A stretch of DNA of 24,000 nt from Acidobacteria bacterium 13_1_20CM_2_55_15 (lineage in GTDB: Bacteria; Acidobacteriota; Terriglobia; 20CM-2-55-15), in NCBI GenBank assembly GCA_001920875.1, contig MNKP01000024.1:5990-29989 (forward strand). Direction: 5' to 3'. Every line of letters begins with the position of its first letter. Position 1 is the stretch's first letter. This document shows positions 1,341-21,376 of the stretch, one piece after another. The notes beneath the pieces are model-generated. The model saw only the letters and a program-made list of their open reading frames with translations, made no database searches and was not told where the DNA came from. The position numbers and the translations under genes were made by a program.

Positions 1341-2828
1341 GTGCATCAATTCTATTCGAAGTGTTGCGCTTTCGCTTTAGTGGTCTCACTGCTCGATTTT
1401 GGTTGCACCCACCGCGTCATCAAAAAAGTCGACCCCGCTCTCATCAATGCCGACCGTGAAGAAATTGTCGGCGTGACGACCAATCGTGGCGAGGAGGTGA
1501 GATTCGATTCGCCCGGAGGAGCACTGCGCAATGGAGTGATTTCGGCGCGCGTTCGCGGCAGCGACTATATGATTAATATCCCGGACGTCAATCGCTTGTG
1601 GGTTGCGCGCGTCGAAACATCGGTTGCCAGGACCGTCGGGCTGGTTGTCGGGATAGCGGCGGGAACGCTCGTCACTGTCGTTGCTATCGCACTTCTCACG
1701 AAGCAATCGTGTCCGTTTGTTTATTCCTGGGACGGAGAGAAGTACTCGTTCGACGCCGAACCTTACGGTGGCGCCATAGCCCAGGGGCTCGAGCGTGACG
1801 ATTATTCGGAACTGGAGCACTTACGGGCGGACCATGGAATGTATCGGCTGCTTCTGACGAATGAAGTCGACGAGACACAGTTTACGAATTTGATGGAATT
1901 GTGGGTCGTCGATGCCTCGGCTGAGGCGCAAATCGTGTCTGATGAATTCGGCACACTTCATTCTGTAATGCGTCTGCAAGCTCCTGTCGCGGCAACCGAT
2001 CGTGCCGGGAACGACCTGCTTCGATGGTTGACCGCCACAGACCGATTGATCTGGGAACCGGCGGCCATGCCTGCTTCAGACGGCGCTCTTCGTGATGAGA
2101 TCACTCTGACTTTTCCAAAGCCCGAAGGCGCACGCAACGCACGTCTCGTCGTGAATGCTGCAACCGGTCTCTGGGGCTCTTACATGATCAAGAAAATGGT
2201 CGAACTCCGCGGCCGAGAGGCGTCGGCATGGCTGGAATCACTGAAGCCGGACTCGACTGAGTTGAACGCGCTTCATACATGGATTGCGCGCGAAGATATC
2301 TATCGATTAAACGTAGATGTCGAAGAACCGGACGGCTGGCATACGCGCGGCAGTGTGCCGCCCGGCGGTCCATTCATCGCTGAAGATCGCGTCGTTTCGA
2401 TCGACACAAGTTATGTGCGGGGAGATAAGCTTCGCATCCGGTTAAGGCCGCCGTCAGGCTTCTGGGCTTTGAATTCTTTTGCTGTGAATTACGATGACGA
2501 CCATGAGCCTGCGGTTACACGCATTGCACCGGTGTACGCGAAGACCAGTGACGGGCGCGATGTCCTGGCCGACTTAGTGTCGTCCGATAATCGCTACTAC
2601 GCAATGCCGTCAACTAGTGATCGGGCCGAAATCCAGTTCAAGGCGCCTCCGGAAAAACCGGGCCTGAAGCGCACGATTTTCCTGCACAGCCGCGGCTGGT
2701 ACCAGTTGCATCTGAACACCGGCCACGAGCCCGATGTCCAGGGGCTCGATGGAATCTTCAACCACGCAGACGGTGCCGCGAGATTTGCGGCGAAGGAGTA
2801 TGCGATATGGAAAGCAGATCAAAACTAA
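1341..2828 (+). CDS. hypothetical membrane-anchored or lipoprotein-like protein (495 aa)
   Basis: GTG start, with AGGAGG at 1332-1337. The N-terminus is hydrophobic and ends ...LLDFGC, a possible lipobox. There is an internal TM helix (VGLVVGIAAGTLVTVVAIALL). The ORF is long and uninterrupted. I recognise no catalytic motif. Confidence 0.8.
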   Translation: MHQFYSKCCAFALVVSLLDFGCTHRVIKKVDPALINADREEIVGVTTNRGEEVRFDSPGGALRNGVISARVRGSDYMINIPDVNRLWVARVETSVARTVGLVVGIAAGTLVTVVAIALLTKQSCPFVYSWDGEKYSFDAEPYGGAIAQGLERDDYSELEHLRADHGMYRLLLTNEVDETQFTNLMELWVVDASAEAQIVSDEFGTLHSVMRLQAPVAATDRAGNDLLRWLTATDRLIWEPAAMPASDGALRDEITLTFPKPEGARNARLVVNAATGLWGSYMIKKMVELRGREASAWLESLKPDSTELNALHTWIAREDIYRLNVDVEEPDGWHTRGSVPPGGPFIAEDRVVSIDTSYVRGDKLRIRLRPPSGFWALNSFAVNYDDDHEPAVTRIAPVYAKTSDGRDVLADLVSSDNRYYAMPSTSDRAEIQFKAPPEKPGLKRTIFLHSRGWYQLHLNTGHEPDVQGLDGIFNHADGAARFAAKEYAIWKADQN

Positions 2829-3218: not shown

Positions 3219-3719
3219 ATGCGCTCATATAATTCGCGCCACATGTACCACCTGCCGGACCTTTTCTCCATGGGCTGGGGCAAAGTCCGAAGGGTCTTTC
3301 TCATCGCGTTTCGCAAGAAACGCGTAATCGCGAAGCTGGATCGCCGCCGCGGCGCCTGCACCCGGTGCGGTGCGTGCTGCAAGATTCTATTTAAGTGTCC
3401 CGCCTACGACGAGTCGGACGGCAATCCCAAGTGCCTCATCTACGACGATCGTCCAGGCGTTTGCAGTCTCTTCCCGCTCGATGAGAAAGACTTGCGAGAC
3501 AGGAACATCGTAATGCCCGGGACGAAGTGCGGTTTCTATTTCGAGCACGGCTCCCGTTCGGAGGTAGAGCGGCGCGAGACGATGCCGCTCCGGTGGGGAC
3601 CGTCGAAGAACCGAGGCGCGAACAACGGCAAGAGCCGAATCGTGACCGGGACGTTCGCGATCCTCTGGTCGTTCTTCCTCAAGCCATCAGAGAACGCAAA
3701 CCGAAGTGAGAAGCTTTGA
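3219..3719 (+). CDS. YkgJ-family cysteine-cluster protein (CxxCxxCC putative Zn/Fe-chelating domain)
   Basis: CTRCGACC, followed by CLIYDDRPGVCSLFP, matches the CxxCxxCC family (Pfam PF03692). The start is uncertain; in-frame Met codons also occur at residues 9 and 18. Confidence 0.8.
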   Translation: MRSYNSRHMYHLPDLFSMGWGKVRRVFLIAFRKKRVIAKLDRRRGACTRCGACCKILFKCPAYDESDGNPKCLIYDDRPGVCSLFPLDEKDLRDRNIVMPGTKCGFYFEHGSRSEVERRETMPLRWGPSKNRGANNGKSRIVTGTFAILWSFFLKPSENANRSEKL

Positions 3720-3827: not shown

Positions 3828-3887
3828 CCGAGACGACAAAACCGAATTTTGGGGGAACGAGTTCCAAAGTCTCGGATTTCTGATTTT
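3828..3887 (+). promoter_or_regulatory. structured element or weak terminator between the YkgJ-like gene and desaturase 1
   Basis: CCGAGAC (3828-3834) pairs with GTCTCGG (3869-3875). The stem encloses two small hairpins (AAAA..TTTT and GGAA-CGAG-TTCC). A T-rich tail ATTTCTGATTTT follows. Confidence 0.3.
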
Positions 3888-4947
3888 GCGCATCGATGAA
3901 AGTTGGACCCATCCTGTCCTGCCCATATGCGATATAACCTCCACGAGTAAAAACAAGCGTGTCCCTGTGAGTACGTTCGCGGGGAATTCCCGGCGCAACG
4001 TATTGGCTCCACCCCCGGCAGCCTGCATCGCACTCAGGCCTTCGGATAAGCTTGGCCTCCTCCATACTGCCGGGGTTGCAGCGACAACCCTTGCCGGTTT
4101 GGCCATGTCCCGTTTGGGGGGCATTCGTTGGTTCGGCGGTCAGGTTCTCTTGGCTGTGAGCCTCGTGCAGTGGTTCATTTTGCTTCACGAGTGCGGACAT
4201 GAAACGCTGTTTCGGCGCGGCCCGCTGAACACCTTGGTCGGACGCACAGCGGCATTTTTCAGCGGGATCCCGTTTATCTGCTGGAAGCGCGTGCATGCCA
4301 AGCATCATCGCTGGACCGGATGGCAAGATCTGGATCCGACAACCGCTTCACTGGTACCGCGGCCTCTCAGCCCCCTCGAACGATCGGTGATCCACATCAG
4401 TTGGAAATATTGGGTACCGACGTTTTCGGTGCTTTATCGCGTGAATAACTATTGGAATGTGCTTCGCCTGCGCAAGTTGTTCGGCCCAAGCCGGGAGTGG
4501 CGGCAAATGAGGTTGGGCGCAATCGGACTTCTGTCGCTGTATTCCATAACTATTTATCTCGTAGGCGTGCGCGGTGTCATCGAAATGGTTGGGTTGGCTG
4601 TCTTCCTCGCTCTGGTCTGTGAAGACCCGTTGATCCTGAGCCAGCACACGCACATCCCTCAGCACGTCAGCCGTGGGGTCAATGCTCTTCCATTCGCTGC
4701 GTTGGAACAGGAGGAGTTCACTCGTTCGCTACGTTTTCCTGCGTGGGTGTCGAAGTTTGTGCTTTTCAATTTCGATGCGCATGAACTTCATCATATGTAC
4801 CCCTTCGTTCCCGGCTACCACCTTCGGCGAATTCCGTACGACGGTGTGAATGAAATCCATTGGTGGCGATGGCTCACTTTGGCGAAACGGATTCGTGGCG
4901 AAGAATTTCTCTTCCGAAACCAAAATGACACTGGCATCTACATCTAA
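3886..4947 (+). CDS. membrane fatty-acid desaturase family protein (HECGH type)
   Basis: Three His boxes are present: HECGH, HAKHH and HELHH. Hydrophobic segments surround them (Pfam FA_desaturase PF00487 pattern). The start is uncertain: TTG 3886 is the first possible start, and in-frame alternatives are GTG 3967, TTG 4003 and ATG 4105. Confidence 0.85.
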   Translation: MRIDESWTHPVLPICDITSTSKNKRVPVSTFAGNSRRNVLAPPPAACIALRPSDKLGLLHTAGVAATTLAGLAMSRLGGIRWFGGQVLLAVSLVQWFILLHECGHETLFRRGPLNTLVGRTAAFFSGIPFICWKRVHAKHHRWTGWQDLDPTTASLVPRPLSPLERSVIHISWKYWVPTFSVLYRVNNYWNVLRLRKLFGPSREWRQMRLGAIGLLSLYSITIYLVGVRGVIEMVGLAVFLALVCEDPLILSQHTHIPQHVSRGVNALPFAALEQEEFTRSLRFPAWVSKFVLFNFDAHELHHMYPFVPGYHLRRIPYDGVNEIHWWRWLTLAKRIRGEEFLFRNQNDTGIYI

Positions 4948-5542
4948 CTCCGGGAGTGCCGCCGCCGAGCCCTTGGCTTGCGCGGTCTTCATCGTCGTCG
5001 CCTTTATCCTGTCCGGCGCCGCGCATGTGCTGTGGCTGCGGAGCGCGGCTTCTATGCGATTCAGTTTTCCAATCGATTGCGGCCTTTCTCTCCGCGGCAA
5101 GCGTATCTTCGGCGACCACAAGATGTCTCGGGGTTTCGTGGTCATAGTCCCTGCTACAGGCGCGGCATTTCTAATGCTCTATGTCTTCGTTCGCACTGCG
5201 GCTCCCGCCTTTGCTGCACAATTGTGGTCTGCCGCTCCGTGGCAATATGCAGCCTTCGGCCTCTGGGCTGGTTTCGGCTTCATGGCTGGCGAACTGCCGA
5301 ATTCGTTCGTGAAGCGGCGACTGGAGATTCCGCCTGGTCGACTGCCCGCGCATCCCTCAGCTCGATGGGTTTGTTTAGTTGCCGATCGCGTCGATTCGAT
5401 TCTGGGAATGCTGGGCGCATTGAGCGTCGTTGTTTCCGTTCCAACATTGACATGGATCTACGTGATCCTGGTGGGAGCTGGAATCCACTGGACATTTAGC
5501 GTCGTGCTATTTGCATTGGGGGTGAAGGAGAGAATGGCATGA
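4925..5542 (+). CDS. CarS-family (CDP-archaeol synthase-like, DUF46) integral membrane cytidylyltransferase
   Basis: PIDCGLSLRGKRIFGDHKMSRGF matches the CarS D.G...G.r.fG..KT.rG block. GELPNSFVKRRLEI followed by ADRVDS matches the G(D/E)..SF.KRR and D-rich blocks. There are about five hydrophobic helices. I placed the start at internal ATG 4925 (MTLAS...), which overlaps the desaturase end by 23 nt. Confidence 0.75.
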   Translation: MTLASTSNSGSAAAEPLACAVFIVVAFILSGAAHVLWLRSAASMRFSFPIDCGLSLRGKRIFGDHKMSRGFVVIVPATGAAFLMLYVFVRTAAPAFAAQLWSAAPWQYAAFGLWAGFGFMAGELPNSFVKRRLEIPPGRLPAHPSARWVCLVADRVDSILGMLGALSVVVSVPTLTWIYVILVGAGIHWTFSVVLFALGVKERMA

Positions 5543-8160
5543 GCGCGACAGGAGTGTTCTCTCAACGAAGTCTTGTTACCTGCAGTCTCAATAACGCGCG
5601 CGACCTGAGTGAAGTGGGCAACAAGGCTCATAACCTCAGTCGCATGTTGAAGCTCGGACTGAACGTTCCAGCCGGATTTGTGATCACGAAAACCGCCTTT
5701 GACTTGTTTTGCGAGGCCAACGGTATCGATCTCGGGCAGGAGTCGAAGCCGGATTTGCAAGGCGCAATGATCCCGCGAGTGATTTTCGAAGAACTCTTGG
5801 AACTTCGGTACGCATGTCTGCCGTCCGGACCAGTGGTTGTTCGAAGCTCAGGCATTGGTGAGGATGGCATCAACGCTTCGTTCGCCGGTCAATTGGATTC
5901 CATCCTTCACGTCGAAACTGCCGAAGAAATAGAACGCGCCGTCTTGGCGTGTTGGTCCTCTTATTGGAACGAACGCGTGCTTTGTTACCAACGCACCAAA
6001 GGCGTCCGGTTACGAGGGATGGCCATCATCGTCCAGGCGCAAGTGACGTCTTCTCTGTCGGGCGTCCTTTTCACGGAGGCGCCTCAAGGGCGCGGGCAAC
6101 AAGACGAGATCTGCGTCGAGTATTGCGCTGGCTTTGGCGATGCTCTCGTGTCGGGGCTCGTGAATCCCGGCCGCTTTCGAATCTCTAAAACAGACGGCCG
6201 CTATACCATTGATGAATCCACGACAACATTGGATTCGATAGCGGTACAGTTCCCGTTCGAGGGGCAGCAAATTGCGACATTAGCGCGCGCGGCTGACATT
6301 TTGGAGGCCCACTTCGGGTGGCCCCAGGACGTCGAATGGACGATTGACGATTGCGGTGAATTGTTTCTACTACAATCCCGTCCGATCACCGCGCAGGCTT
6401 CTGTATTCCGTTCTCAAATCCTCTGGTCGAATGCCAACGTCAACGAAAACTTTCCTGCTCCCATAACGCCATTTCTTTATTCGATCGCGCGCGAAGGCTA
6501 CTACCACTACTTTCGGAATCTTGCAAAAGCCTTCGGTCTGTCCGCGAGCCGCATCCGGGCGATGGAACATTCTCTTCGGTATCTTGTCGGAGTCCATCAC
6601 GCCCGGATTTACTACAACCTGACGAGCATTCACTCGGTGCTTCGAATGGCGCCATTCGGCGAAGAGTTGGCTGAGTTTTTCAACGACTTCGTTGGCGTGG
6701 ACGCCATGGCCCCGGTCAGACCTGCGCCGAACAGATCGCGGTGGTTCCAGGCATTGGAGCTCTGCAGGATTGGGATCAAGACGACATGGCAGTACGCACT
6801 TCTGGCACGACGCGTCGAGCAATTCGAGCGCTGCGCCGACGATTGGGCACGCACGACAGTCCCGGCGGACCTTCAAAGCCAATCCTTGCTCGCACTCCGT
6901 GACGATCTGCGCCGTTTTATGGAGATCCGCTGTCATCGATGGACGAATGCTTCGCTGGCGGATGCGGCGTCGATGATTTGCTACGGGGTTTTGAAGCTGT
7001 TGTTGCGCAGTACATATCCTGATGCCGGAGAATCCGCGCTTCACAATAATTTGCTGAAAGGGCTTGGCGGCGTTGTCAGTGTGAAGCCTGCGATTGACTT
7101 GTGGGAACTGTCCCGAAAAATTCTGGCCGATCCCGAAACGGCGCGGTGGTTTAGGTATAGCGAAAGCCGCGACCTCATGCGCGCACTCCCGGCGGAACCG
7201 AAACGGCAGTGGCTGTTTGCGGAAGTGAATGACTATCTCGAACGATGGGGATTCCGGTTTTCCGGCGAACTGATGTTGACACAGCCCAGCTTTCAGGAGG
7301 ACCCAGCGCCTCTATTCGACATGTTGAAAACGTACCTAGACGCTAAAGATGCGGCACCGATCGAAGCCGTCCAGCAGCTCGAATACGAACGAATCTCCGC
7401 CACTGCAAACCTTCTCAATGACCTTCGCCGGACGAAGCGAATTCCCAGAGTACCGCGATGTCTTCAGGCGCCGCTTATGCGTCTCGCATTGAACGCAACA
7501 CGGCGGGCTATCCAACTCCGTGAGCGAGTACGGTCAAAGCAGGCGCTCCTTTATAACGGCTGCCGGCGAATTGCGCTCGCAATTGGCAAACAGCTTGTTC
7601 GTGCGGGCACGTTCGTGAATGCCGACGACATCTTTTTCCTGACGTACCAGGAGTTAGATGAATTCCTCACCGGGAACGCGATGTTTCCGGGCATCGTCGC
7701 GGAGACTGTTGCGCTTCGAAAGCGTGCGCATGAAGTGAGTAGCGATTCTTCGGCGCCGGATATCTTCACTTTATCCGAAGGCGCCTACCGGCCAACCGAA
7801 ACGCATGGCAGCGGTGACCGGCCACCTATGCCGTCGGCTATGGACATGTCGGGTATCGGTGCATGCGGTGGGCAAGTGTGTGCGCGAGCGACGGTGCTTG
7901 GAAGCGTGGCGGACGCGCACCTGCTCTCGGTTGGGGACATTCTGGTGACGCGCCAGACTGATCCCGGTTGGGCTCCGGTTTTCTCTTTGATTCGCGGATT
8001 AGTCATCGAAAGGGGCGGCATGCTTTCTCATGGGGCAATCATCGCCAGAGAGTTCGGCCTGCCCTGCGTAGTGGGTGTGAGAAATGCTACATCGGTAATT
8101 CGTCAAGGTTCCTTGCTATCGATCGATGGAGATCGAGGACATGTTCGAATCTTGGATTGA
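5539..8160 (+). CDS. PEP-utilising phosphotransferase with PpsA/rifampicin-phosphotransferase-like architecture (873 aa)
   Basis: The N-terminal PPDK_N/ATP-grasp region has the motifs EVGNKAHNLSRMLKLGLNVPAGFVIT and VVVRSSGIGEDGINASFAGQLDS. The C-terminal swivelling His domain reads TDPGWAPVFSLIRGLVIERGGMLSHGAIIAREFGLPCVVGV. The start overlaps the upstream stop as ATGA, and GAAGGAG lies 8-14 nt upstream. Confidence 0.9.
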   Translation: MSATGVFSQRSLVTCSLNNARDLSEVGNKAHNLSRMLKLGLNVPAGFVITKTAFDLFCEANGIDLGQESKPDLQGAMIPRVIFEELLELRYACLPSGPVVVRSSGIGEDGINASFAGQLDSILHVETAEEIERAVLACWSSYWNERVLCYQRTKGVRLRGMAIIVQAQVTSSLSGVLFTEAPQGRGQQDEICVEYCAGFGDALVSGLVNPGRFRISKTDGRYTIDESTTTLDSIAVQFPFEGQQIATLARAADILEAHFGWPQDVEWTIDDCGELFLLQSRPITAQASVFRSQILWSNANVNENFPAPITPFLYSIAREGYYHYFRNLAKAFGLSASRIRAMEHSLRYLVGVHHARIYYNLTSIHSVLRMAPFGEELAEFFNDFVGVDAMAPVRPAPNRSRWFQALELCRIGIKTTWQYALLARRVEQFERCADDWARTTVPADLQSQSLLALRDDLRRFMEIRCHRWTNASLADAASMICYGVLKLLLRSTYPDAGESALHNNLLKGLGGVVSVKPAIDLWELSRKILADPETARWFRYSESRDLMRALPAEPKRQWLFAEVNDYLERWGFRFSGELMLTQPSFQEDPAPLFDMLKTYLDAKDAAPIEAVQQLEYERISATANLLNDLRRTKRIPRVPRCLQAPLMRLALNATRRAIQLRERVRSKQALLYNGCRRIALAIGKQLVRAGTFVNADDIFFLTYQELDEFLTGNAMFPGIVAETVALRKRAHEVSSDSSAPDIFTLSEGAYRPTETHGSGDRPPMPSAMDMSGIGACGGQVCARATVLGSVADAHLLSVGDILVTRQTDPGWAPVFSLIRGLVIERGGMLSHGAIIAREFGLPCVVGVRNATSVIRQGSLLSIDGDRGHVRILD

Positions 8161-8788
8161 GACTTTTCGGCTTTACCGGCGCGAGCGATTCCCGCTCCGA
8201 ATATTTGCTCTTGTGGCAGTGGTCTTAACCCTTGCAGCTTTCGTGGAAGGCATACCGCATGACTGGTTCGAGGTCCTTCTCTCATGGATGGCGAGCGTAC
8301 TCCTGCTGCTCCAGTTCCGTATCTGGGATGATCTCGGCGACCGGAATCACGACGCCGCTCATCATCCTGACCGTGTCCTTTCGCGTTGCCATCGCGTTTC
8401 TGCATTCTACCTACTTCTTGCCTTCATTGGTTTGTCGAATTGGATCGTTTTGCTACTGCTCGGTCACTCGACGATTCCTTTTCTTCTGGTCTGCGCCGCC
8501 GCATCCTTTTGGTATACGCACGTCGACGGGGCGTTGCGCCGCGGCATTGCGGGACGGCATGTGTTGCTGTTGAAGTATCCGGTATTCGTCTGGCTGATCG
8601 CTCCGTCTCACCCGCCTGAATTGATTTCATCGATGGCTATCGTTTATCTCAGCGGCGCAATTTATGAACTACTCCATGATCGTGAGATTCGCTCGCGTCC
8701 TCAGGCGAGGCTTCTCGTTGCAATTGAGGTCTGTGCGCTCGGCGGCATCGCAGCCGTAGTGCTACGGGTCTTGGGAGAATCACTATGA
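8126..8788 (+). CDS. polytopic membrane protein with a UbiA-type Asp-rich motif (short UbiA-like prenyl/alkyl-transferase candidate)
   Basis: About six hydrophobic helices. FRIWDDLGDRNHD fits the first UbiA-family motif (N/D)DxxDxxxD. I could not identify a clear second DxxxD motif. At 220 aa it is shorter than typical UbiA enzymes. ATG 8141 is an alternative start. Confidence 0.6.
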   Translation: MEIEDMFESWIETFRLYRRERFPLRIFALVAVVLTLAAFVEGIPHDWFEVLLSWMASVLLLLQFRIWDDLGDRNHDAAHHPDRVLSRCHRVSAFYLLLAFIGLSNWIVLLLLGHSTIPFLLVCAAASFWYTHVDGALRRGIAGRHVLLLKYPVFVWLIAPSHPPELISSMAIVYLSGAIYELLHDREIRSRPQARLLVAIEVCALGGIAAVVLRVLGESL

Positions 8789-9753
8789 GTACGGCAACCG
8801 CATTTAAGCCGCTCTTCGAGAATTTTGTTTTTGAGACCGTCTCGTGCTACTCCTGCGGTAGCGCGTCCAGCAAGGAGTTCATCGTTGCTCAGGATGATCT
8901 GACGGGCAAACCGGGAAGCTTCAGGTTCGTTACTTGCCAGGATTGCGGGCTGACGTACCAAAATCCTCGAATCCGAATCGATCGAATCAAATCCTATTAC
9001 GACGACGAGTACATCGCGCACCGCAAGAAGACCGACTGGGGGCGTCTCACCTGGTTTTACAACTGGGTGATGGATAGGCATGACATCGATAAAGATCGAA
9101 TCATCCGCAGGTATGTTGAGCTGGGTCCGCAAAGCGAGATTCTCGATGTGGGCTGCGCCGTAGGCACTTTCCTCCAGAAGATGCGGACGCTCTACGATGC
9201 ACGTGTTTCAGGAGTCGACTTCAAAGACCTTTCGCACAGCTCCACGCTGGACGGAGTCGAGTTTCACTGCGGGCTTTTTTATAACCAGCGTCTCGCGAGC
9301 GGCCGCTTCGATCTTGTAACGATGTGGCACTTCCTCGAACATGATTATGATCCTTTGCGAACGCTCTTGATGGCGAAGAGAGTGTTGAAGCCGGAAGGGC
9401 GCCTCGTGATTGAAGTGCCTCGGCTGGATAGCGTCACTTTCCGTTTATATCGTGAGCGTTGGCCTGGCTTGCAGGCTCCGCAGCACACGGTTCTATTTGA
9501 GAGAAGGACACTACTAAATCTCATCGAAAAATGCGGTCTGGAAGTCGTGGACTATCTCCCTTACGGCGCTTTCCCGCCTTACTTCTACATCTTCGCCGGC
9601 GCAGCATTCAAGATTCTCAAAGGTCGTGGTCTCAATCTTTCGAAGGCCATCGTTCCTTATTTTCTGGGGCAGATTCTCCTGCTGCCCCTGTTGATGGCGG
9701 AGCGCCAACTCAATCTCGCGATGCAAACCGTCATTTGCAGGAGGAAACCATGA
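8785..9753 (+). CDS. class I SAM-dependent methyltransferase with an N-terminal Cys4 zinc ribbon
   Basis: CYSCGS...CQDCGLTYQNP forms the zinc ribbon. ILDVGCAVGTFL is SAM motif I, and LKPEGRLVIEVP is the post-II/III region. The start overlaps the upstream stop as ATGA. Confidence 0.9.
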   Translation: MSTATAFKPLFENFVFETVSCYSCGSASSKEFIVAQDDLTGKPGSFRFVTCQDCGLTYQNPRIRIDRIKSYYDDEYIAHRKKTDWGRLTWFYNWVMDRHDIDKDRIIRRYVELGPQSEILDVGCAVGTFLQKMRTLYDARVSGVDFKDLSHSSTLDGVEFHCGLFYNQRLASGRFDLVTMWHFLEHDYDPLRTLLMAKRVLKPEGRLVIEVPRLDSVTFRLYRERWPGLQAPQHTVLFERRTLLNLIEKCGLEVVDYLPYGAFPPYFYIFAGAAFKILKGRGLNLSKAIVPYFLGQILLLPLLMAERQLNLAMQTVICRRKP

Positions 9754-10571
9754 GCTCTGTAATCAGAGAAGCGAAGGCAAAAACTGGAATGCTGAACAAT
9801 CCTGAAGTACAAGAATCGCTCAGTATCCCTGATTTTCCTCAGCAGCGATGGCGTCCGTATTTTCTATTGGTCGCAAGCAGCGTGCTGTTGACGTTCTGCG
9901 CCGCCGTCATGTTCCTCGTCGCCTTATTTACAGGATTCCAATTGCGGCGGTTCTACTCCGAAGTGTTGGGTCGGCGGCTGGGAAAGGCCGTCCTGACTTT
10001 GTGCGGCGTCCGGATCGAGCAGCATGGACCGGCCCCCCTGCCGAATATTCAAACGATCTTTATCGCGAACCACACGTCTACGCTGGATGTGTTTATCCTT
10101 CTCGCCCTGGGATTGCCTCGAACACGATTCTTCCTCAAACGTAAATACAGGCTGATTCCTCCACTCGCGGTCATCAGTTATCTCGTCGGTGTTTTCTTTA
10201 CGCCGCCCCAAACCAACCGTGCGAAGCGCGTGCGCTGTTTCCAACATGCCGAAGACGTGTTGCGGCGAACCGGCGATTCTGTTTTCTTGAGTCCAGAAGG
10301 AACGCGAATCACCTCGGGACAGATTGGGCCATTCAACAAAGGCGCTTTTCATCTGGCGACGGCCCTGCGGGCGCCCATCGTTCCTATCTTTATCGTCATT
10401 CCAAGGAACATCAACCCCGGCCGGGGATTTGCGGCGCTTCCCGGCGTAGTTCATGTTTACTTTCAATCTCCGATTCCGACGACAGACTGGAAGCTTAGTG
10501 ATCTGGATAGAAACAAGACTGCCGTTCGAGACTACTTTGCTGGATTGAACGTGACCTTAGGACTGAGATGA
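9750..10571 (+). CDS. lysophospholipid / 1-acyl-sn-glycerol-3-phosphate acyltransferase (PlsC/AGPAT family)
   Basis: NHTSTLD is the HX4D motif, FLSPEGTR is the PEGTR motif, and APIVPIFI is also present. There is an N-terminal TM helix. I used internal ATG 9750 of track ORF 9531..10571; it has GGAGGA 4 nt upstream and overlaps the methyltransferase stop as ATGA. Confidence 0.9.
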   Translation: MSSVIREAKAKTGMLNNPEVQESLSIPDFPQQRWRPYFLLVASSVLLTFCAAVMFLVALFTGFQLRRFYSEVLGRRLGKAVLTLCGVRIEQHGPAPLPNIQTIFIANHTSTLDVFILLALGLPRTRFFLKRKYRLIPPLAVISYLVGVFFTPPQTNRAKRVRCFQHAEDVLRRTGDSVFLSPEGTRITSGQIGPFNKGAFHLATALRAPIVPIFIVIPRNINPGRGFAALPGVVHVYFQSPIPTTDWKLSDLDRNKTAVRDYFAGLNVTLGLR

Positions 10572-12328
10572 TTCCAAACCAGTTTCGAACCTTGGCCGAT
10601 GTGCTTCGGTATCGCACTGAAACGCAGGCATTCGAGGCCGCCTATACATTTTTGAATGACGGTGAAGCCGAAGGCCGCACCATCACGTATCGTGATCTCG
10701 ATTTTCAAAGCCGAGCGCTTGCAGTAATGTTGCGTGACTGGCGCATACAGCGTCCGTTGCTGGTCTATCCTCCTGGGCTCGATTTCATCGTGTCTTTCTT
10801 CGCCTGCATTTATGCCCGCATCACACCTGTGCCTGCAGGTCTCGCTCATATCATGCGCCTCGGCCGCTCCTTGACACGCCTTGCCGCCGTGGCGCGTGAT
10901 GCAGACGCGGATGCCGTTCTCAGTGTTACGCGAGTCATTGACCGAGCGTTCACTGATCCGGATTTCATGAATCGATCGCAGGAGCTCGGTCGAATGCGAT
11001 GGCTCGCGACCGATCGCTGTGATGAAGCTCTGGGCGCATGTTATCAAGATGCTTTGCTGCCATCCGACATGCCGGCGTTCATACAGTACACGTCCGGTTC
11101 GACATCGATTCCAAAAGGAGTCGTCGTCACTCATCGAAACCTGCTTCACAATTTGAGTTACTGCAACGAGGTGGAGGAGAACGGCCGCGATACGATCTCC
11201 GTCTCATGGCTGCCTCACAGCCACGATATGGGCTTGATCGAAGCTATCCTGCTCCCGACTTTCGCGGGCTATCGCGCCTACCTCATGTCTCCCGCATCAT
11301 TTCTCCGCCGGCCGGCGCGGTGGCTCGAGGCTATTACACGCTTTCGCGCGACCAACAGCGGTGGGCCCAATTTCGCTTTCGATCTGTGCGTTGAAAAGAT
11401 TTCCGCCGAAGAACAGGAGAATCTAGATCTCACCTCCTGGCGCGTCGCTTACAACGGCTCGGAGACGATTCGGAGTGAGACTTTATTGCGGTTTCGCCAA
11501 AGATTCGAACGCTCCGGATTCCGCTGGAACGCATTTTATCCGGTTTATGGGCTGGCTGAATCGACACTCCTGGTTTCGAGCGGTCATGCGGCAGATGTGC
11601 CAGTGGTTCGGGAACTCGATGCAGAGGCGTTAGGTCGAGGCATCGTGGCAGCTCCGCAACACCGCACTGCCAAGACTATCAGCGTCGTCGCGAGCGGCAG
11701 GACACAGTCCCATACTCGAATCGTCATCGCGGATCCGGAAACACTTGTCAAGTGTGGCGCAAATGAAGTCGGCGAAATCTGGATCGCGGGACCCAGCGTT
11801 GCCAATGGTTACTGGCAGAAGCCGGCCGAAACCGAGGCGGCGTTTCATGCCTATTTCGAGGACAGCCAGGATGGGCCATTCTTACGAACGGGCGATCTCG
11901 GCTTCTTGTCGGATGGACAGCTCTTTGTGACCGGGCGGATCAAAGACGTTATAAATATTCGCGGATTCAAACATTATCCGCAAGACATTGAGCACACTGT
12001 TAGTCAGAGTCCTGCCGCCATCTTAATGAGTGGCTGTGCCGCATTCGCCGTCGATGGAGATGGAACCGAGCAACTCGCCGTTGTCATCGAGGTCCTTCCG
12101 AAGTTGTCTCAGGATTTCGACGATTGGAGCGATCAGGCCATAACCGCTATCCAGAGTGCGGTAACGGAACGGCACGGAATAAGGATCCAGTCGCTGGCGC
12201 TTGCGCCTTACGGATCGATTCCGAAAACGACGAGCGGAAAACTTCAACGGCAACTGTGCCGCAGGTGGTTCATCGACGGTAGCCTGCAGACGGTTCGCAT
12301 CTGGAGTCACGACGGAGAACGAGCATGA
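10568..12328 (+). CDS. fatty acyl-AMP ligase (FAAL-type adenylating enzyme)
   Basis: FIQYTSGSTSIPKGVVVTHRNLLHN is the AMP-binding core. VSWLPHSHDMGLI is a motif typical of FAALs such as FadD32. GDLGF...GRIKD is also present. The start overlaps the upstream stop as ATGA. Confidence 0.9.
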   Translation: MIPNQFRTLADVLRYRTETQAFEAAYTFLNDGEAEGRTITYRDLDFQSRALAVMLRDWRIQRPLLVYPPGLDFIVSFFACIYARITPVPAGLAHIMRLGRSLTRLAAVARDADADAVLSVTRVIDRAFTDPDFMNRSQELGRMRWLATDRCDEALGACYQDALLPSDMPAFIQYTSGSTSIPKGVVVTHRNLLHNLSYCNEVEENGRDTISVSWLPHSHDMGLIEAILLPTFAGYRAYLMSPASFLRRPARWLEAITRFRATNSGGPNFAFDLCVEKISAEEQENLDLTSWRVAYNGSETIRSETLLRFRQRFERSGFRWNAFYPVYGLAESTLLVSSGHAADVPVVRELDAEALGRGIVAAPQHRTAKTISVVASGRTQSHTRIVIADPETLVKCGANEVGEIWIAGPSVANGYWQKPAETEAAFHAYFEDSQDGPFLRTGDLGFLSDGQLFVTGRIKDVINIRGFKHYPQDIEHTVSQSPAAILMSGCAAFAVDGDGTEQLAVVIEVLPKLSQDFDDWSDQAITAIQSAVTERHGIRIQSLALAPYGSIPKTTSGKLQRQLCRRWFIDGSLQTVRIWSHDGERA

Positions 12329-14997
12329 GTTCCGCTATAACCGTTGCATCAGGCCAGATAGAAGAATTCCTTCAGCATCGTGTCGCGGAGATCGCTGGAG
12401 TGACGCCATCCAGCGTCAGCTTGAGCACGGCCTTATCGCGCCTCGGAGTGGATTCGCTCGGTATGCTTCACCTGATCGAGGGCATCGAAAGCGAATTGGG
12501 AACAGAAATTCCAAACGCGATCTGCTTGGACGGTCTCACCATTCAGTCGCTTGCAGAAGTTTTGGCTGCTTGTGTACCGGGCGCACGGCGCGCAACCGTT
12601 AATCTGGCCCAAGAGATGGCGGCCGACAGCAAACTTCCGGAGGACATTCGCCCTGCGCCAGGCCCAGCCGTGGCGCTGCCTCGATCGATTCTGCTAACCG
12701 GTGCGACGGGCTTTCTTGGGGCCTACTTGCTACGTTCGCTTCTGCGAAACACGAAAGCGCAGGTTGTTTGCCTGGTCAGGCCAGACAAAGACGACGGTCA
12801 AACCAGGGTTCGGCGGAATCTCGAGCGCTACGGAATCTGGGATGACGGATTCGACCATCGCATTGCGATACTCGAGGCAGACATTACGCAGCCGCATTTG
12901 GGCCTGCCACCTTCTTCATTTGACGCCCTGGCAATCACCATCGACGTCGTGTTTCACGCAGCGGCGGCGGTGAATTGGGTGCACTCTTATACGCGGCTGC
13001 GGCACACGAACGTGCTGGCCCTTCGCGAGTTGTTGGGCTTGGCCTGCCGCCACAGGTCAAAACCCTTTCATCTCATTTCGACTCTGGCTGTGTGCTACTC
13101 GATGACAGGTTCGCGAGAGGTTTCAGAGACTGACGATGTGTTTGCAGATGTGGCTGGAATCCATCTGGGATATGCGCAAAGCAAATGCGTTGCGGAGTCC
13201 CTCGTGAAAACCGCAGCGCAGCGCGGCTTGCCGGTATCGATCGTTCGGCCCGCTCTTATCTCAGGCAACAGCGTTACGGGCATCTCCAATACCGAGGACT
13301 TCGTTTCGAAGTTTATCAGGGCGTGCGTACAAATGGGCGCGGCCCCGGATCTTGACTGGCTCCTGGACTTTTTGCCCGTCGACTTTGCGGCGGAAGCGAT
13401 TACGCGCCTTGTATTGAACGGAAATTTGGAGCCATTTCGAGTTTTCCATTTAGCGAATCCAAAGCTCAGACATTGGCGCGAGTTGATATTATGGATGAAC
13501 CTGTTTGGATATCGCGTCGAACTGCTTCACTACCAGGATTGGCTGCATCGGCTCAATGCCGATGTACGTAATGATAGGGAACATCCGTTACGAGACCTTC
13601 TCCCATTTTTTCTACATCGTCCTGCAGGACAGAAGGGACTTTATCTGCCTCAGTTGTACGAGGAATCCCGGCGGCGCAAAGCACGGTTCGATGCCACGCG
13701 GGAGCTGCTGGAGCGCGAAGATCTGACGTGTCCGCAATTGTCCACTCGTTTACTGGATCGTTACTTCGAATCCTACATTGATCGTAAGTTTCTGCCGCCA
13801 GTCGAAAGGTCCCATCGAACGGACCCTCCTGCCGCTGATGAACATCTGCAATTCGACGCGTGCTTCTTTAACTCTGTGATTGGAAACCACGAGGTGACCC
13901 GCGCGCGACCGCTTGAATTCTCCGGTGGTCATAGCGTGATCGGCGAACTGACATCGTGGAAGTACGGCCACTCGATCGGGCTGCACGGCTATCGTCTCGA
14001 ATTTGGGGACGGGCAACGTGAGCGTGACGTGATCGTGAAGGTGAAAGCGCGCGATAAGGAAGTAACGGCCGTCGGGCAAACCTTAGCAGCATTGTGCAGT
14101 CCCGCTCTCGGCTGCGCCTACGAGCGTTTCTCCGATTGTCTAGGCTTGACCGGGTGTGATACTCGCGAACTCTCTGTCTACCAGCAGGATGATGCTCGTT
14201 TCCGTCGATTCACTCCGGGGTTTTACGGTGGACGATCGGATCATGCGCGAACGGTTCTGGTCCTGGAAAAGCTGTCGCGGTTGGAAATGATGGACTCGGT
14301 CGAGTCTGTACACACTTGGCCTGCCAAATACATCGAAGCGGCCATTCAAGGAATCGCGCGGCTCCACGCCATTTGGTACGGAGTGCAACTGGGGCGTGCC
14401 GTGAACCAATCGTGGTCTAATCAGGTTCTCCATCGAAAACAGTTTGCGGAGGCCAGGGATCTTTGGGTTGCCCTGGCGGACCACGCCTGCCCGATTTTTT
14501 CGCCTTGGATAGGTCCCGAATGCGGCGCGATACAATCCGTTCTCATCGAGCGCCTGGATGAGTTCTGGCGGCTTCATGAAGGCATGTCGCATACCTTGAT
14601 CCATAATGATTTCAATCCTCGAAACCTCGGATTCCGACGCTCAGGCAGCGAATTGAGCCTTTGCCTCTACGATTGGGAACTCGCGACGGTCGATCTTCCG
14701 CAACATGACCTTGCCGAGCTCCTGTGCTTCGTACTTGGAGCAGACGTGCAACGGTCCGATCTCCTTCGTTACATCGAAATGCACCGGACGGCATTACAAG
14801 ACGCGACGGCACAACAGATTGATGACACTTCTTGGGTGCTCGGCTTTTGCCTATCGCTGTATGACCTGATGATCAATCGGCTGCCAGCTTATGCAATGAT
14901 TCACCGTTTTAATGAGCAGCGTTTTCTCGAACGTGTAATTCGTACATGGAAGGGAATATTCGATGTCGTATCCAGCACGATATATTCGCCTTTGTAA
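12325..14997 (+). CDS. tri-domain fusion: acyl carrier protein + thioester reductase (NAD-binding SDR) + APH/choline-kinase-like phosphotransferase
   Basis: The ACP domain has LGVDSLGM, with the phosphopantetheine Ser at residue 44. The reductase domain has LLTGATGFLGAYLL from residue 123 and YAQSK (YxxxK). The C-terminal kinase fold has LIHNDFNPRN (HxDxxxxN, His at nt 14602) and LYDWE. The start overlaps the FAAL stop as ATGA. Confidence 0.9.
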   Translation: MSSAITVASGQIEEFLQHRVAEIAGVTPSSVSLSTALSRLGVDSLGMLHLIEGIESELGTEIPNAICLDGLTIQSLAEVLAACVPGARRATVNLAQEMAADSKLPEDIRPAPGPAVALPRSILLTGATGFLGAYLLRSLLRNTKAQVVCLVRPDKDDGQTRVRRNLERYGIWDDGFDHRIAILEADITQPHLGLPPSSFDALAITIDVVFHAAAAVNWVHSYTRLRHTNVLALRELLGLACRHRSKPFHLISTLAVCYSMTGSREVSETDDVFADVAGIHLGYAQSKCVAESLVKTAAQRGLPVSIVRPALISGNSVTGISNTEDFVSKFIRACVQMGAAPDLDWLLDFLPVDFAAEAITRLVLNGNLEPFRVFHLANPKLRHWRELILWMNLFGYRVELLHYQDWLHRLNADVRNDREHPLRDLLPFFLHRPAGQKGLYLPQLYEESRRRKARFDATRELLEREDLTCPQLSTRLLDRYFESYIDRKFLPPVERSHRTDPPAADEHLQFDACFFNSVIGNHEVTRARPLEFSGGHSVIGELTSWKYGHSIGLHGYRLEFGDGQRERDVIVKVKARDKEVTAVGQTLAALCSPALGCAYERFSDCLGLTGCDTRELSVYQQDDARFRRFTPGFYGGRSDHARTVLVLEKLSRLEMMDSVESVHTWPAKYIEAAIQGIARLHAIWYGVQLGRAVNQSWSNQVLHRKQFAEARDLWVALADHACPIFSPWIGPECGAIQSVLIERLDEFWRLHEGMSHTLIHNDFNPRNLGFRRSGSELSLCLYDWELATVDLPQHDLAELLCFVLGADVQRSDLLRYIEMHRTALQDATAQQIDDTSWVLGFCLSLYDLMINRLPAYAMIHRFNEQRFLERVIRTWKGIFDVVSSTIYSPL

Positions 14998-15580
14998 TTT
15001 GCTGACGTACATCTCGCTATTGTGCAGCCTGCTGGCTGTCTTCGCCGCGCGGGAATACCGAAGCTGGGAGGCCGCCGGTTTATTGCTCGCGGTTTCCGCG
15101 CTCGCCGATACCTTCGATGGAAAATTCGCTCTGCTCTTCCAACGGACCGAGAACGAGAGCGAATTCGGCGCACAACTCGACAGTCTCGTTGACGCCGTTT
15201 CGTTTGGAATCGTGCCTGTCGTCTGCTTGCAGTCGCTCGTCCAATTCGATTCGGCCTCGGCTCGATTCGAGTTGCTGGTGGCTGCGTTTGTGTACGTTCT
15301 GTGCGCGGTGACCCGGCTTGGCTATTACAATCTACACCATCACGCGCAGTCCGGATTCATCGGACTGCCGACAACTCTAGCTGCTCTTTTGTGGTCGACA
15401 CTGTTCCTCACACATCCATCCGCGATACCCGTTGCTCTGATCTCTGTCCTCGTCGGCGGGGCGATGGTTTCGCCGTTGACCGTTTCCAGGCCGCGAGGTA
15501 TTGCAATGGGAGCGTACATGCTCTGGTTTCTGGTTGTATTTATTTCGTACACATACCGGTTCGTCGCCGGAATCTACTGA
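14963..15580 (+). CDS. CDP-alcohol phosphatidyltransferase family protein (small, PssA/archaetidylserine-synthase-like, divergent motif)
   Basis: DTFDGKFAL-x11-GAQLDSLVDAV resembles DGxxARx8GxxxDxxxD, but the Arg is replaced by Leu and the spacer is 11 residues. There are about six hydrophobic helices. It overlaps the previous gene by 35 nt. Confidence 0.8.
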   Translation: MSYPARYIRLCNLLTYISLLCSLLAVFAAREYRSWEAAGLLLAVSALADTFDGKFALLFQRTENESEFGAQLDSLVDAVSFGIVPVVCLQSLVQFDSASARFELLVAAFVYVLCAVTRLGYYNLHHHAQSGFIGLPTTLAALLWSTLFLTHPSAIPVALISVLVGGAMVSPLTVSRPRGIAMGAYMLWFLVVFISYTYRFVAGIY

Positions 15581-15583
15581 CCG

Positions 15584-16651: not shown

Positions 16652-17136
16652 TCGGGGAGAATCTTCTGGGAGCAGTTAATACCCGACATGACGTCTGTAC
16701 CAAAAAGTTCGACATAATTGACCTTTGGCAAGAGAAATGACGAGTCGATGTTGGCGAAGATCTTCTGCAGATACGCGCGGTGTCCATCAATTGTAGTCTC
16801 GGCGCGGACCTGACCGTCCTCTTCATATACTTCGATTTCGACTCGCTTCTGAGAGACCACTGTCAGCACATAGTGACTGGGCGATTTGGTCCGCAGGTGT
16901 ATGCCATAAGCTCTTGTTCTTTCGAGAAAATTTAAGGCCTGGCGCTTGCCATTAGCTGAGCCCATCGTCCAGTACACGATAACCGGCTCGCGCGGATCCA
17001 AGTGGCCGCTGCCATCGAGATGCGCGTCGTAGTGCACCACGTTACCGTTAGTTGTCCGCTCGATAATGAACAACTGTTTGTCTGGGGCTCGCATCAGAAT
17101 TGGCGATGCTAGAAGCAGGATTATTTTGAATCTCAT
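16648..17136 (-). CDS. secreted beta-rich hypothetical protein, DUF4833-like (family recalled from memory, unverified)
   Basis: The signal peptide is MRFKIILLLASPILMRAP. LFIIERTTNGNVVHYDAHL...VIVYWTM...ALNFLERTRAYG resembles DUF4833 proteins as I remember them. Its stop shares the tetranucleotide CTAG (16648-16651) with the convergent desaturase stop. Confidence 0.75.
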   Translation of the reverse strand: MRFKIILLLASPILMRAPDKQLFIIERTTNGNVVHYDAHLDGSGHLDPREPVIVYWTMGSANGKRQALNFLERTRAYGIHLRTKSPSHYVLTVVSQKRVEIEVYEEDGQVRAETTIDGHRAYLQKIFANIDSSFLLPKVNYVELFGTDVMSGINCSQKILPD

Positions 17137-21126: not shown

Positions 21127-21376
21127 CCGCTTTTTTCCTTCCGCTGCTCCTTTCAGCGTGGCTCCACCACTCTTCATTTGAGTGAACTGGGGTGTCCGGC
21201 TGGAGAAGGTGCCGGGACCTTATGCGCCGCAACGGTGTACTTCGCGGACGCCCGGACCACTACCGCGAAACCGCATAGGGGACCTTAAGGTCGAGCCTTC
21301 GGGTGCCAAAATCAGCCTGCGGCTTACCTTCTGCTGTACAGATTTGTTTGAGATCCGCGGAATCGTTTTCCGTGCC

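Follow-up and report, generated by a model that had tools for sequence, protein, structure and literature searches.

A Possible Route to Ether Lipids at the UbiA-Like Locus

The known bacterial routes to ether lipids are those of AGPS, elb, PlsAR, and Ger, of which PlsAR and Ger were described from anaerobic bacteria, and the ether-forming step of elb is unidentified (PMC13159169, PMC9131029, bioRxiv 10.64898/2026.06.23.733905). Split variants of ElbD have also been reported in the Acidobacteria and Poribacteria (bioRxiv 10.64898/2026.06.23.733905). In the archaea, lipid synthesis proceeds from digeranylgeranylglyceryl phosphate (DGGGP) synthase (DGGGPS) to CarS and then to archaetidylserine synthase (PMC9385802). 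The present analysis deals with a 24,000-nucleotide stretch of DNA (the window) from Acidobacteria bacterium 13_1_20CM_2_55_15 (contig MNKP01000024.1, positions 5,990 to 29,989), in which a gene for a small UbiA-like membrane protein (8126-8788, + strand) lies within a string of lipid genes. The formation of non-isoprenoid glycerol ether bonds in aerobic bacteria is only partly known.

The product of this gene is very probably a real, highly divergent member of the UbiA superfamily, a relationship which is well supported, and the profile-profile, structure, and Asp-conservation comparisons favour the suggestion, made in an earlier sequence-only reading of the same DNA, that it is a minimal or novel UbiA member. 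It is proposed, tentatively and on the grounds of sequence, models, and analogy, that it may be a catalytically competent divergent transferase, which would move an alkyl chain from an alkyl diphosphate to glycerol phosphate and form an ether bond in this way. Of the functions considered, this one has the most support, and we rate it at somewhat below even odds.

Among the bacterial systems, the locus can be compared with elbA-E of Myxococcus xanthus, in that the domains of ElbD (acyl ligase, acyl carrier protein (ACP), reductase, and acyltransferase; PMC9131029) are found here in three genes, at 9750-14997, a likeness at the level of domain descriptions. On the other hand, the operon in the window has no equivalents of ElbB (HAD), ElbC, or ElbE/ElbA (NAD epimerase/dehydratase), following the composition given in PMC9131029, and elb has not been described with UbiA-like, Rph-like, CarS-like, kinase, or methyltransferase genes. 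No description of the cluster was found in the searchable full-text literature, in which subscription-only papers are not covered.

Membership of the UbiA Superfamily

The gene and its conserved segments have the following positions:

8126-8788, + strand: putative UbiA-like intramembrane transferase, an open reading frame (ORF) of 220 aa, probably 215 aa from the ATG at 8141
8315-8353, + strand: motif 1, FRIWDDLGDRNHD (F-R65-I-W-D68-D69-L-G-D72-R-N-H-D76), residues 64-76, from the translation
8573-8581, + strand: K150-Y151-P152, a family-specific signature at the cytoplasmic start of transmembrane helix (TM) 5, from conservation and the kink in the model
8663-8680, + strand: remnant of the second Asp motif, Y180-E181-L-L-H184-D185, at the cytoplasmic end of TM6, from the translation and conservation

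The 220-aa ORF that had been claimed at these coordinates is present in the ORF list of the window. The ATG at 8141 (MFESW...) is probably the start, as GGAG/GAGG is found 4-10 nt upstream and the same start was called in a homologue that is 85% identical, which would give a protein of 215 aa, although the residue numbers used here remain those of the 220-aa frame. A cluster 85-94% identical is found in the metagenome-assembled genome (MAG) GCA_009772755.1, and the best relatives of the protein in the GTDB genomes are 37-38% identical. A crude count of the codon differences from the 85% homologue (19 synonymous and 32 non-synonymous) indicates moderate constraint only, and is weak proof.

The Pfam UbiA profile (PF01040) matches residues 30-167 on profile positions 2-144 of 250 with E 2.1e-6, and its 27.7 bits fall short of the curated gathering cut-off of 34.2 bits. 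In a Pfam scan of 141 relatives, mostly representatives of 50%-identity clusters, UbiA was found in 27 (E<1e-3, best 2.8e-10), and the sole other match was one DUF308. NCBIfam gave no match for the UbiA-like protein and no equivalog. A family profile of 24 relatives had only marginal matches among the PDB sequences (CdsA E 0.17, IspA 0.43, and DGGGPS 0.62), and sequence by itself is therefore not decisive.

Profile-profile comparison, which had been suggested with the sequence-only reading, was carried out with hhalign. For this, a canonical set was made up of UbiA, MenA, and CyoE of E. coli, together with the aligned parts of ApUbiA, DGGGPS of M. jannaschii (MjDGGGPS), and AfUbiA. Against these six sequences, the family aligned over residues 14-89 with 90% probability and E 1.6e-6, and the 141-sequence family alignment did so over residues 14-131 (TM1-TM4) with 85% and E 6e-6. 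In the alignment, IWDDLGDRNHD is paired with VVNDYADRKFD of E. coli UbiA and HPDRVL with the conserved NRPLP segment. When the single E. coli UbiA sequence was used, motif 1 was still aligned, with a probability of 0.3%.

The AlphaFold2 model of the protein (pLDDT 92.8, pTM 0.86) was compared with the PDB using Foldseek, and the first eight ranks are all UbiA-fold membrane enzymes, with a TM-score (query) of 0.52-0.62 and a probability of 0.98-1.00. DGGGPS (6m31/7bpu) comes first (E 9e-3, TM-score 0.58-0.62), and the others include 8j8k/8j8j, ApUbiA (4od4/4od5), and AfUbiA (4tq4). After the eighth rank, soluble trans-isoprenyl diphosphate synthases that share the fold appear, with UBIAD1 among them at rank 10. 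The E-values are modest, from 1e-3 to 1e-2, both for this protein and for a 294-aa relative (P0023, 33% identical), which the structure comparison also placed in the UbiA fold. The model of this relative (pLDDT 92.3) has an amphipathic helix and nine TM helices, and it can be aligned over its full length with DGGGPS 6m31 (TM-score 0.63/0.65, 284 columns) and superposed on ApUbiA as well.

Since a full-length relative with nine TM helices has the UbiA fold, the family includes complete UbiA folds, and the protein in the window is a version without TM8-9, that is, a C-terminally shortened form as far as the models indicate. Its model and hydropathy give an amphipathic N-terminal helix (residues 2-21) followed by seven TM helices (24-38, 47-71, 92-111, 117-132, 141-158, 165-184, and 192-219), rather than the nine of the superfamily, and the count of six helices in the sequence-only reading was not borne out. 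TM5 is kinked at K150-Y151-P152, with a helix break in the model at 149/150. The relatives vary in the same part of the protein, given that those of approximately 190 aa end directly after the ExxHD segment and have six TM helices, and those of 275-295 aa have nine. We regard the protein as representing a new, truncated UbiA subfamily. In the databases, the relatives are named “hypothetical protein”, “uncharacterized membrane protein”, or, in some automatic JGI annotations, “4-hydroxybenzoate polyprenyltransferase”, a name that is not supported and is probably wrong.

Active-Site Motifs and Their Conservation

Motif 1 lies directly after residues 47-66, at the cytoplasmic end of TM2, which agrees with its earlier placement at the end of the second hydrophobic segment. 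It is the counterpart of the first Asp-rich, Mg-diphosphate-binding motif of the superfamily (N62-D63-x2-D66-x3-D70 in MjDGGGPS), and is aligned with INDxxDxxID of DGGGPS, with an Asp instead of the Asn in the first position. In the alignment of the 141 relatives, R65, D69, R83, K150, Y151, and E181 are invariant, and R21, F64, D68, L70, D72, D76, P81, L85, F94, Y130, L148, P152, H184, and D185 are at least 90% conserved, so that the Asp residues of motif 1, on whose conservation the earlier proposal depended, are retained throughout the family or nearly so. The conserved polar residues would all be found on one cytoplasmic face, if the helix order of the model is combined with the N-in topology assumed for UbiA.

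The pattern [ND]DxxDxxxD was obtained in 0.03% of the shuffles of the protein, and the six-frame translation of the window contains it three times, two of them elsewhere. The motif alone is therefore weak evidence, and it is the position, the conservation, and the fold that carry the weight.

In the central Y-x(n)-K motif, Y130 aligns with the motif Tyr after TM4, and no Lys is found where the spacing of the motif would place it. In the family consensus, an Arg occupies approximately Y+4, and the invariant K150 follows 20 residues later.

The second Asp motif had been reported as missing, which was correct in that there is no canonical DxxxD (nor the D-x2-D-x3-D of DGGGPS), and incorrect in that a conserved remnant, ExxHD, is present, in which E181 is invariant and H184 and D185 reach at least 90%. 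For the comparison of this segment, an alignment of 28 DGGGPS sequences was built, which has the invariant motif R-E-I-x-K-D-x-E-D-x2-G-D. An extended hhalign alignment (mact 0), of low confidence in the C-terminal half, sets E181 against the invariant Glu, H184 against the Lys, and D185 against D180 of MjDGGGPS.

Comparison with Described UbiA Enzymes

DGGGPS of M. jannaschii (6M31/7BPU) is the best structural match of both the protein in the window and its nine-TM relative, and shares with the former an N-terminal amphipathic helix, (N/D)DxxDxxxD where TM2 ends, a Tyr that is conserved after TM4, and E-x2-(K/H)-D where TM6 ends. Genes for a CarS-like cytidylyltransferase and a CDP-alcohol transferase are linked to it in the operon, and their products would follow the enzyme as they do in the archaeal pathway (for the archaeal steps, PMC9385802). 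The differences are also considerable, given that the protein in the window has seven TM helices rather than nine, lacks Asp183 and Asp187 of motif 3, does not have the Lys of motif 2 in place, and is found in a bacterium amid fatty acid genes (a fatty acyl-AMP ligase (FAAL) and an ACP-reductase), and not with genes for isoprenoids, glycerol-1-phosphate (G1P), or geranylgeranylglyceryl phosphate synthase (GGGPS). Among the invariants of DGGGPS (R-E-I-x-K-D-x-E-D-x2-G-D; Y-x4-K; N-D-x2-D-x3-D-x2-N-x-P-x-R-P), counterparts were found only for the Asp of motif 1, P81/R83, Y130, E181, and D185, and hhalign in global mode gave no alignment with the DGGGPS family. The identification of the protein as a DGGGPS was rejected, because the specific similarity is weak.

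The canonical enzymes UbiA, ApUbiA (4OD4), MenA, and CyoE can be aligned with the N-terminal half of the protein (TM1-TM4, motif 1, and the P-x-R segment) at 85-90%, and ApUbiA takes ranks 2 to 4 in the fold searches with the two family members. They differ from it in that its C-terminal half cannot be aligned with confidence, its second DxxxD is degenerate, and its neighbourhood contains no pathway for an aromatic substrate. A role in quinone biosynthesis, which the pairing of a UbiA protein with a methyltransferase might bring to mind, was rejected as no aromatic-precursor genes are present.

A third comparison is offered by the mycobacterial membrane phosphoribosyltransferase (PRTase) of the Rv3806c type (8J8K/8J8J), which has the UbiA fold, ranks third and fifth for the protein in the window, and demonstrates that this fold accommodates a diphosphate donor other than a prenyl one, together with a lipid-phosphate acceptor. 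Its rank is lower with the nine-TM relative, and the cluster in the window has no genes for sugars or phosphoribosyl pyrophosphate (PRPP).

Genes of the Operon

The UbiA-like gene belongs to a string of ten + strand genes at 3886-16651, in which most of the junctions overlap, by a few bases to approximately 35 nt. The other nine genes are as follows:

3886-4947, + strand: membrane protein of the fatty acid (FA) desaturase family (Des1); FA_desaturase E 7e-23, with HECGH, HAKHH, and HELHH
4850-5542, + strand: CarS-like (CDP-archaeol-synthase-like) cytidylyltransferase; Pfam CarS-like E 1.4e-10
5539-8160, + strand: Rph-type phosphotransferase of 873 aa, similar to phosphoenolpyruvate (PEP) synthase; PPDK_N and PEP-utilizers mobile domain
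8785-9753, + strand: S-adenosylmethionine (SAM) methyltransferase with an N-terminal 4-Cys zinc ribbon; Methyltransf_23 E 1.2e-21, CxxC at residues 21 and 51
9750-10571, + strand: PlsC-type acyltransferase of 273 aa; Acyltransferase E 1e-19, catalytic HTSTLD
10568-12328, + strand: FAAL; AMP-binding E 9e-56, NCBIfam fatty-acid--AMP ligase E 2e-123
12325-14997, + strand: fusion of ACP, thioester reductase, and APH/EcKL-type kinase, 890 aa; PP-binding, NAD_binding_4, and APH
14963-15580, + strand: CDP-alcohol phosphatidyltransferase, similar to archaetidylserine/phosphatidylserine synthase; CDP-OH_P_transf E 1.6e-14
15584-16651, + strand: second FA desaturase (Des2), the last gene of the string; FA_desaturase E 3e-23

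The presence of CarS-like and CDP-alcohol transferase genes near the UbiA-like gene, as noted in the sequence-only reading, was thus borne out by Pfam, with both in the same string. Both are below the cut-offs of the archaeal enzymes in NCBIfam, with 52 bits against a cut-off of 148 for CDP-archaeol synthase in the case of the CarS-like protein, and 85 bits, also below the cut-off, for archaetidylserine synthase in that of the CDP-alcohol transferase. The catalytic motifs of the partner enzymes are intact. In the ACP-reductase-kinase protein, these include DSL (S44), GATGFLG, YAQSK, HNDFNPRN, and YDWE, and its thioester-reductase domain was matched with E 4e-95. The motif of the CDP-alcohol transferase reads D49-x2-D-G-x2-A-L57...G-x3-D-x3-D77, with a Leu in place of the canonical Arg (DGxxAR).

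Rifampin phosphotransferase transfers the ATP beta-phosphate to a hydroxyl of a hydrophobic substrate. The best PDB matches of the Rph-like protein are the rifampin phosphotransferases of Listeria (5fbs/5hv1, E 2e-62), the catalytic GGMLSH831GA is present, and the Rph_4th domain was found in the orthologues. It resembles the RPH/PigC/RedH branch in its length, the ATP-grasp, the C-terminal swivelling His domains, and the catalytic His motif, and differs from it in being far below the equivalog cut-offs of Rph, PigC, RedH, and PEP synthase. We know of no enzyme of this branch that is paired with a UbiA-like membrane protein, whereas the Rph-like protein is always so paired.

The stop of the Rph-like ORF overlaps the start of the UbiA-like gene by 20-35 nt, the two genes being probably coupled in translation, and the stop of the UbiA-like gene overlaps the start of the methyltransferase gene (ATGA). 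The methyltransferase has a hydrophobic C-terminal region, and its only relative in the PDB is an uncharacterised methyltransferase (3cc8, E 6e-4). Des2 was seen only in the lineage of the window (L001-L003 of the homologous loci, which carry L numbers) and is absent from the clusters of other phyla.

Distribution and Conserved Neighbourhood

A word-indexed search returned 49 close relatives of the UbiA-like protein, and an exhaustive profile search returned at least 355 clusters (50% identity) with a limit of E<1e-30 and 759 with one of E<1e-10. The family was found in species-representative genomes of at least eight phyla, with carriers in the Planctomycetota (many of them Pirellulaceae), Acidobacteriota (Vicinamibacterales, Solibacteraceae, Bryobacteraceae, and Thermoanaerobaculia), Nitrospiria, Nitrospinaceae, Burkholderiales and other Pseudomonadota, Gemmatimonadota, Verrucomicrobiota, and Bdellovibrionales. 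Nearly all of the carriers are MAGs, a cultured one being Massilia glaciei B448-2 (NZ_PXWF02000269.1).

The partners of the gene were surveyed with tblastn on 89 homologous loci, in which only the loci with enough flanking sequence were counted for each partner, with the following results:

Rph-like gene, directly upstream of the UbiA-like gene: 63/63 loci
CarS-like gene: 52/55 loci
Desaturase gene, in the upstream position: 54/55 loci
Methyltransferase gene: 67/69 loci
PlsC gene: 62/69 loci
Reductase gene: 42/50 loci
Kinase gene: 42/50 loci
FAAL gene: 30/50 loci
CDP-alcohol transferase gene, at most 9 kb from the UbiA-like gene: 28/50 loci

The Pfam tables of nine loci agree with this survey. 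The recurring order is desaturase, CarS, Rph, UbiA-like, methyltransferase, PlsC, (FAAL), ACP-reductase-kinase, and (CDP-alcohol transferase), and was found in the Planctomycetota, Acidobacteriota, Nitrospirota, Nitrospinota, Pseudomonadota, Gemmatimonadota, Verrucomicrobiota, and Bdellovibrionota. Within the cluster, conservation is highest in the methyltransferase, with 57-71% identity across phyla. In the beta- and gamma-proteobacterial loci (L005/L006, L038, L043, L049, and others), FAAL is mostly absent and the ACP-reductase-kinase is kept, and most of them also have no CDP-alcohol transferase nearby. Without FAAL, the ACP in these loci must be loaded in another way.

In-frame ORFs of approximately 505-518 aa, which contain both the UbiA-like protein and the methyltransferase, were found at L074:9941-11470, L077:9860-11416, L085:4166-5719, and L088:9977-11491. 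The fusion in L088, which is joined just after the YELLxxD segment, looks genuine, and those in L074, L077, and L085, in which ExxHD is absent or garbled, are possibly MAG frameshifts or assembly errors. The gene overlaps and natural fusions suggest a complex of the UbiA-like protein with the Rph-like protein or the methyltransferase. The ORF lengths per phylum are inflated by upstream in-frame extensions and were not relied on.

Variant Clusters

Some loci have replaced a number of the partners. For example, L010:3455-12593, in a MAG of the Nitrospiria (JBHHXE010000004.1), has a DAGK_cat lipid kinase, a CdsA-type CTP_transf_1 protein, and a stand-alone NAD_binding_4 reductase of the FAR type, which take the places of the APH domain, CarS-like gene, and ACP-reductase fusion, and retains the desaturase, Rph-like, UbiA-like (a 308-aa ORF), methyltransferase, and PlsC genes. 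HMG-CoA reductase is also an enzyme type that yields a primary alcohol from a thioester. In L048:3805-6381 (MAG CAVYSY010000033.1), an HMG-CoA-reductase domain (E 4e-102) is fused to an EcKL/APH-type kinase in a protein of 858 aa, upstream of the CdsA-type (in place of CarS-like), Rph-like, and UbiA-like genes, and the fold would apparently be put here to an unusual use, for reducing thioesters in general to alcohols, in a step coupled to phosphorylation. The minimal set is that of L007, with two Rph-type enzymes, a CDP-alcohol transferase, a CarS-like protein, and the UbiA-like protein.

The non-orthologous displacements in these three loci keep the same predicted pathway logic. As judged from the gene content, the conserved set of functions comprises an enzyme that would reduce a thioester to an alcohol, a kinase for an alcohol or lipid, a cytidylyltransferase for a lipid phosphate, and, as the invariant pair, the Rph-type phosphotransferase with the UbiA-like protein.

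The Proposed Pathway and Its Weak Points

The operon has the look of a pathway in which fatty acids become phosphorylated fatty alcohols, and these an unusual phospholipid. We infer all of the substrates and reactions given below from the fold and family relation, the motif conservation, the gene order, and the intact motifs of the partner enzymes described above. FAAL would load a long-chain fatty acid onto the ACP of the reductase protein, the thioester reductase would convert the ACP-bound acyl chain into a fatty alcohol, and the fused APH-type kinase would phosphorylate this alcohol to an alkyl phosphate. The Rph-type enzyme would then add the second phosphate, which would result in an alkyl diphosphate, or an alkenyl diphosphate after desaturation.

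The UbiA-like protein would bind this diphosphate through D68/D69/D72/D76 and Mg2+, together with the basic R65, R83, and K150, and would attach the hydrocarbon chain to glycerol phosphate or a lyso-lipid at a hydroxyl, with the formation of an ether bond and the release of pyrophosphate, as in DGGGP synthase. PlsC may subsequently acylate the other position, the CarS-like enzyme would use CTP to produce a CDP-activated ether lipid, and the CDP-alcohol transferase would attach the head group. Finally, the membrane methyltransferase and the desaturase or desaturases could tailor the product, although the desaturase may instead either render the chain allylic or act later, in a manner similar to that of PEDS1/CarF.

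By analogy, the UbiA-like, CarS-like, and CDP-alcohol transferase proteins would mirror the archaeal steps of DGGGPS, CarS, and archaetidylserine synthase. The presence of two phosphotransferases beside a diphosphate-dependent transferase fits a salvage-type route from alcohol to diphosphate, and, given that the reductase-kinase fusion and the Rph-type enzyme travel with the UbiA-like gene and could supply an alkyl diphosphate, the formation of an ether bond becomes more plausible.

Taken one step further, the cluster could represent a fifth bacterial route to ether lipids, besides AGPS, elb, PlsAR, and Ger, and a bacterial reinvention of the archaeal chemistry, which is possible and, in our estimation, rather unlikely. 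In this version, the alcohol would be doubly phosphorylated by an APH/DAGK-type kinase and the Rph-type enzyme, and a minimal UbiA protein with six or seven TM helices would alkylate glycerol phosphate, with the linked desaturase and the conserved membrane methyltransferase possibly making the chain allylic, and thus prenyl-like, beforehand.

A number of points weigh against the transfer of an alkyl chain. For the dissociative chemistry of UbiA, which involves an allylic cation, a saturated primary alkyl diphosphate makes a poor electrophile, and a non-allylic diphosphate donor is, to our knowledge, without precedent in the superfamily. The Myxococcus and subdivision-4 acidobacteria (Blastocatellia) are the best-known aerobic bacterial producers of ether lipids, and neither is found among the 80 genome matches listed. 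The UbiA-like protein is also the fastest-evolving of the cluster, with 31-41% identity across phyla, and the role proposed for the family is drawn from genes and models.

The relation to DGGGPS is itself a further weak point, as the comparison with the DGGGPS family using hhalign gave 38% probability and E 3.4e-4, weaker than that with the mixed UbiA alignment, and the analogy therefore rests on the fold rank and the context. No homologue of G1P dehydrogenase or GGGPS was found in the Pfam tables of the window or the nine homologous loci. In the low-confidence alignment of the C-terminal half, the positions of D183 and D187 of MjDGGGPS are not acidic here (I188 and another non-acidic residue), and the activity of MjDGGGPS is strongly lowered in the alanine mutants at D180, D183, and D187 (PMC9385802). 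As these Asp residues are needed there and two of them have no acidic counterpart, the second metal/phosphate site is remodelled in this protein, and it may be that the second metal site is missing.

Alternative Roles

The alternative that survives best, improbable as it is, is a conventional prenyltransferase, which would take an isoprenoid diphosphate from the cell pool and transfer it to an acceptor derived from a fatty alcohol or glycerolipid, giving a hybrid isoprenoid/alkyl lipid. Most of the characterised UbiA members use a polyprenyl diphosphate, and the subfamilies differ mainly in the acceptor (PMC9385802), which would be in line with the intact motif 1 and with the prenyltransferases among the best fold matches. 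No gene for a polyprenyl synthase or for isoprenoids was found in any cluster inspected, however, and the Rph-type enzyme of all 63 informative loci, together with the reductase-kinase fusion, would be left with no obvious role in making the donor.

The UbiA fold is also found in terpene cyclases. It is slightly less probable again that the transferase activity was lost and that the protein now holds the soluble Rph-type enzyme and the methyltransferase at the membrane, as an anchor or scaffold, or catalyses another diphosphate reaction, such as hydrolysis, alkene elimination, or cyclisation. The invariant R65, D69, R83, K150, and E181 of the 141 sequences, which share at most 50% identity with one another and in which these residues would lie on one face under the assumed topology, form a charged constellation typical of an active site and not of a scaffold, and motif 1 is exactly the Mg-diphosphate motif. 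The loss of TM8-9 (and of TM7 in the forms of approximately 190 aa), the absence of two of the three Asp residues of motif 3, the low conservation of the protein relative to the rest of the operon, and the in-frame fusions with the methyltransferase are the observations that such a loss would explain.

The roles may also be reversed, as in decaprenylphosphoryl-5-phosphoribose (DPPR) synthase (Rv3806c), in which case the lipid phosphate would be the acceptor and a PRPP-like compound the donor, and an alkyl-phospho-sugar lipid would be formed. The gene content clearly points to the synthesis of a phosphorylated alcohol, by an APH/EcKL- or DAGK-type kinase that either is fused with the reductase or lies next to it, the conserved basic residues R21, R65, and K150 could bind additional phosphates, and the PRTase structures 8j8k and 8j8j rank third and fifth, as described above. 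With the nine-TM relative, the PRTase falls to rank 14 (E 0.45), no gene for a sugar phosphate or PRPP is present in the cluster, and CarS/CdsA, PlsC, and the CDP-alcohol transferase indicate a glycerophospholipid product, so that we regard this arrangement as a poor candidate, ranking below the loss of activity.

A chance motif in an unrelated small membrane protein, or an ORF that is not a gene, is strongly disfavoured and very improbable, given that Pfam, hhalign, and the fold rankings of two family members agree and that the ORF, its motif, and its fixed neighbours are conserved in at least eight phyla, even though the Pfam score is below the threshold, the profile match to the DGGGPS sequence in the PDB has E 0.62, the Foldseek E-values are 1e-3 to 1e-2, and the pattern occurs three times in six frames.

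Implications

Non-isoprenoid glycerol ether lipids, including the brGDGTs (branched glycerol dialkyl glycerol tetraethers), are widely used as palaeoclimate and environmental biomarkers, and their producers and enzymes are debated. If the transfer of an alkyl chain by the UbiA-like protein proves to be true, the protein would form ether bonds in an enzymatically new way and would be the first of the UbiA enzymes whose hydrocarbon donor is not an isoprenoid, with the smallest known UbiA catalytic core, of six to seven TM helices, and the “lipid divide” between the archaea and bacteria would be blurred at the level of mechanism. The gene would provide a marker for the producers of ether lipids in soils and waters, and the Acidobacteriota (Vicinamibacterales, Solibacteraceae, and Bryobacteraceae), Planctomycetota, Nitrospirota, and others would be a candidate source of the non-isoprenoid alkyl glycerol ethers of the environment, and possibly also of brGDGT-type ether bonds. 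Given the cultured carrier, Massilia glaciei B448-2, and the compact operon, the hypothesis is directly testable.

Other Genes in the Window

Upstream of the operon, an ORF of 495 aa with no Pfam match is found at 1341-2828 (+), and a short ORF at 3219-3719, just before the first desaturase gene, has a weak match to CxxCxxCC (zinc/iron-chelating). The end of the operon faces a convergent DUF4833 gene (E 3e-30) at 16648-17136 (-), which has the same arrangement in L001-L003. Further downstream, at approximately 6.6 kb from the operon, there is a gene for a lipid phosphate phosphatase of the PAP2 family (E 1.5e-23) at 23266-23913 (-), and the interval contains a DUF1186 and SEC-C protein at 18373-19254 (-) and an amidase at 21182-22891 (+).

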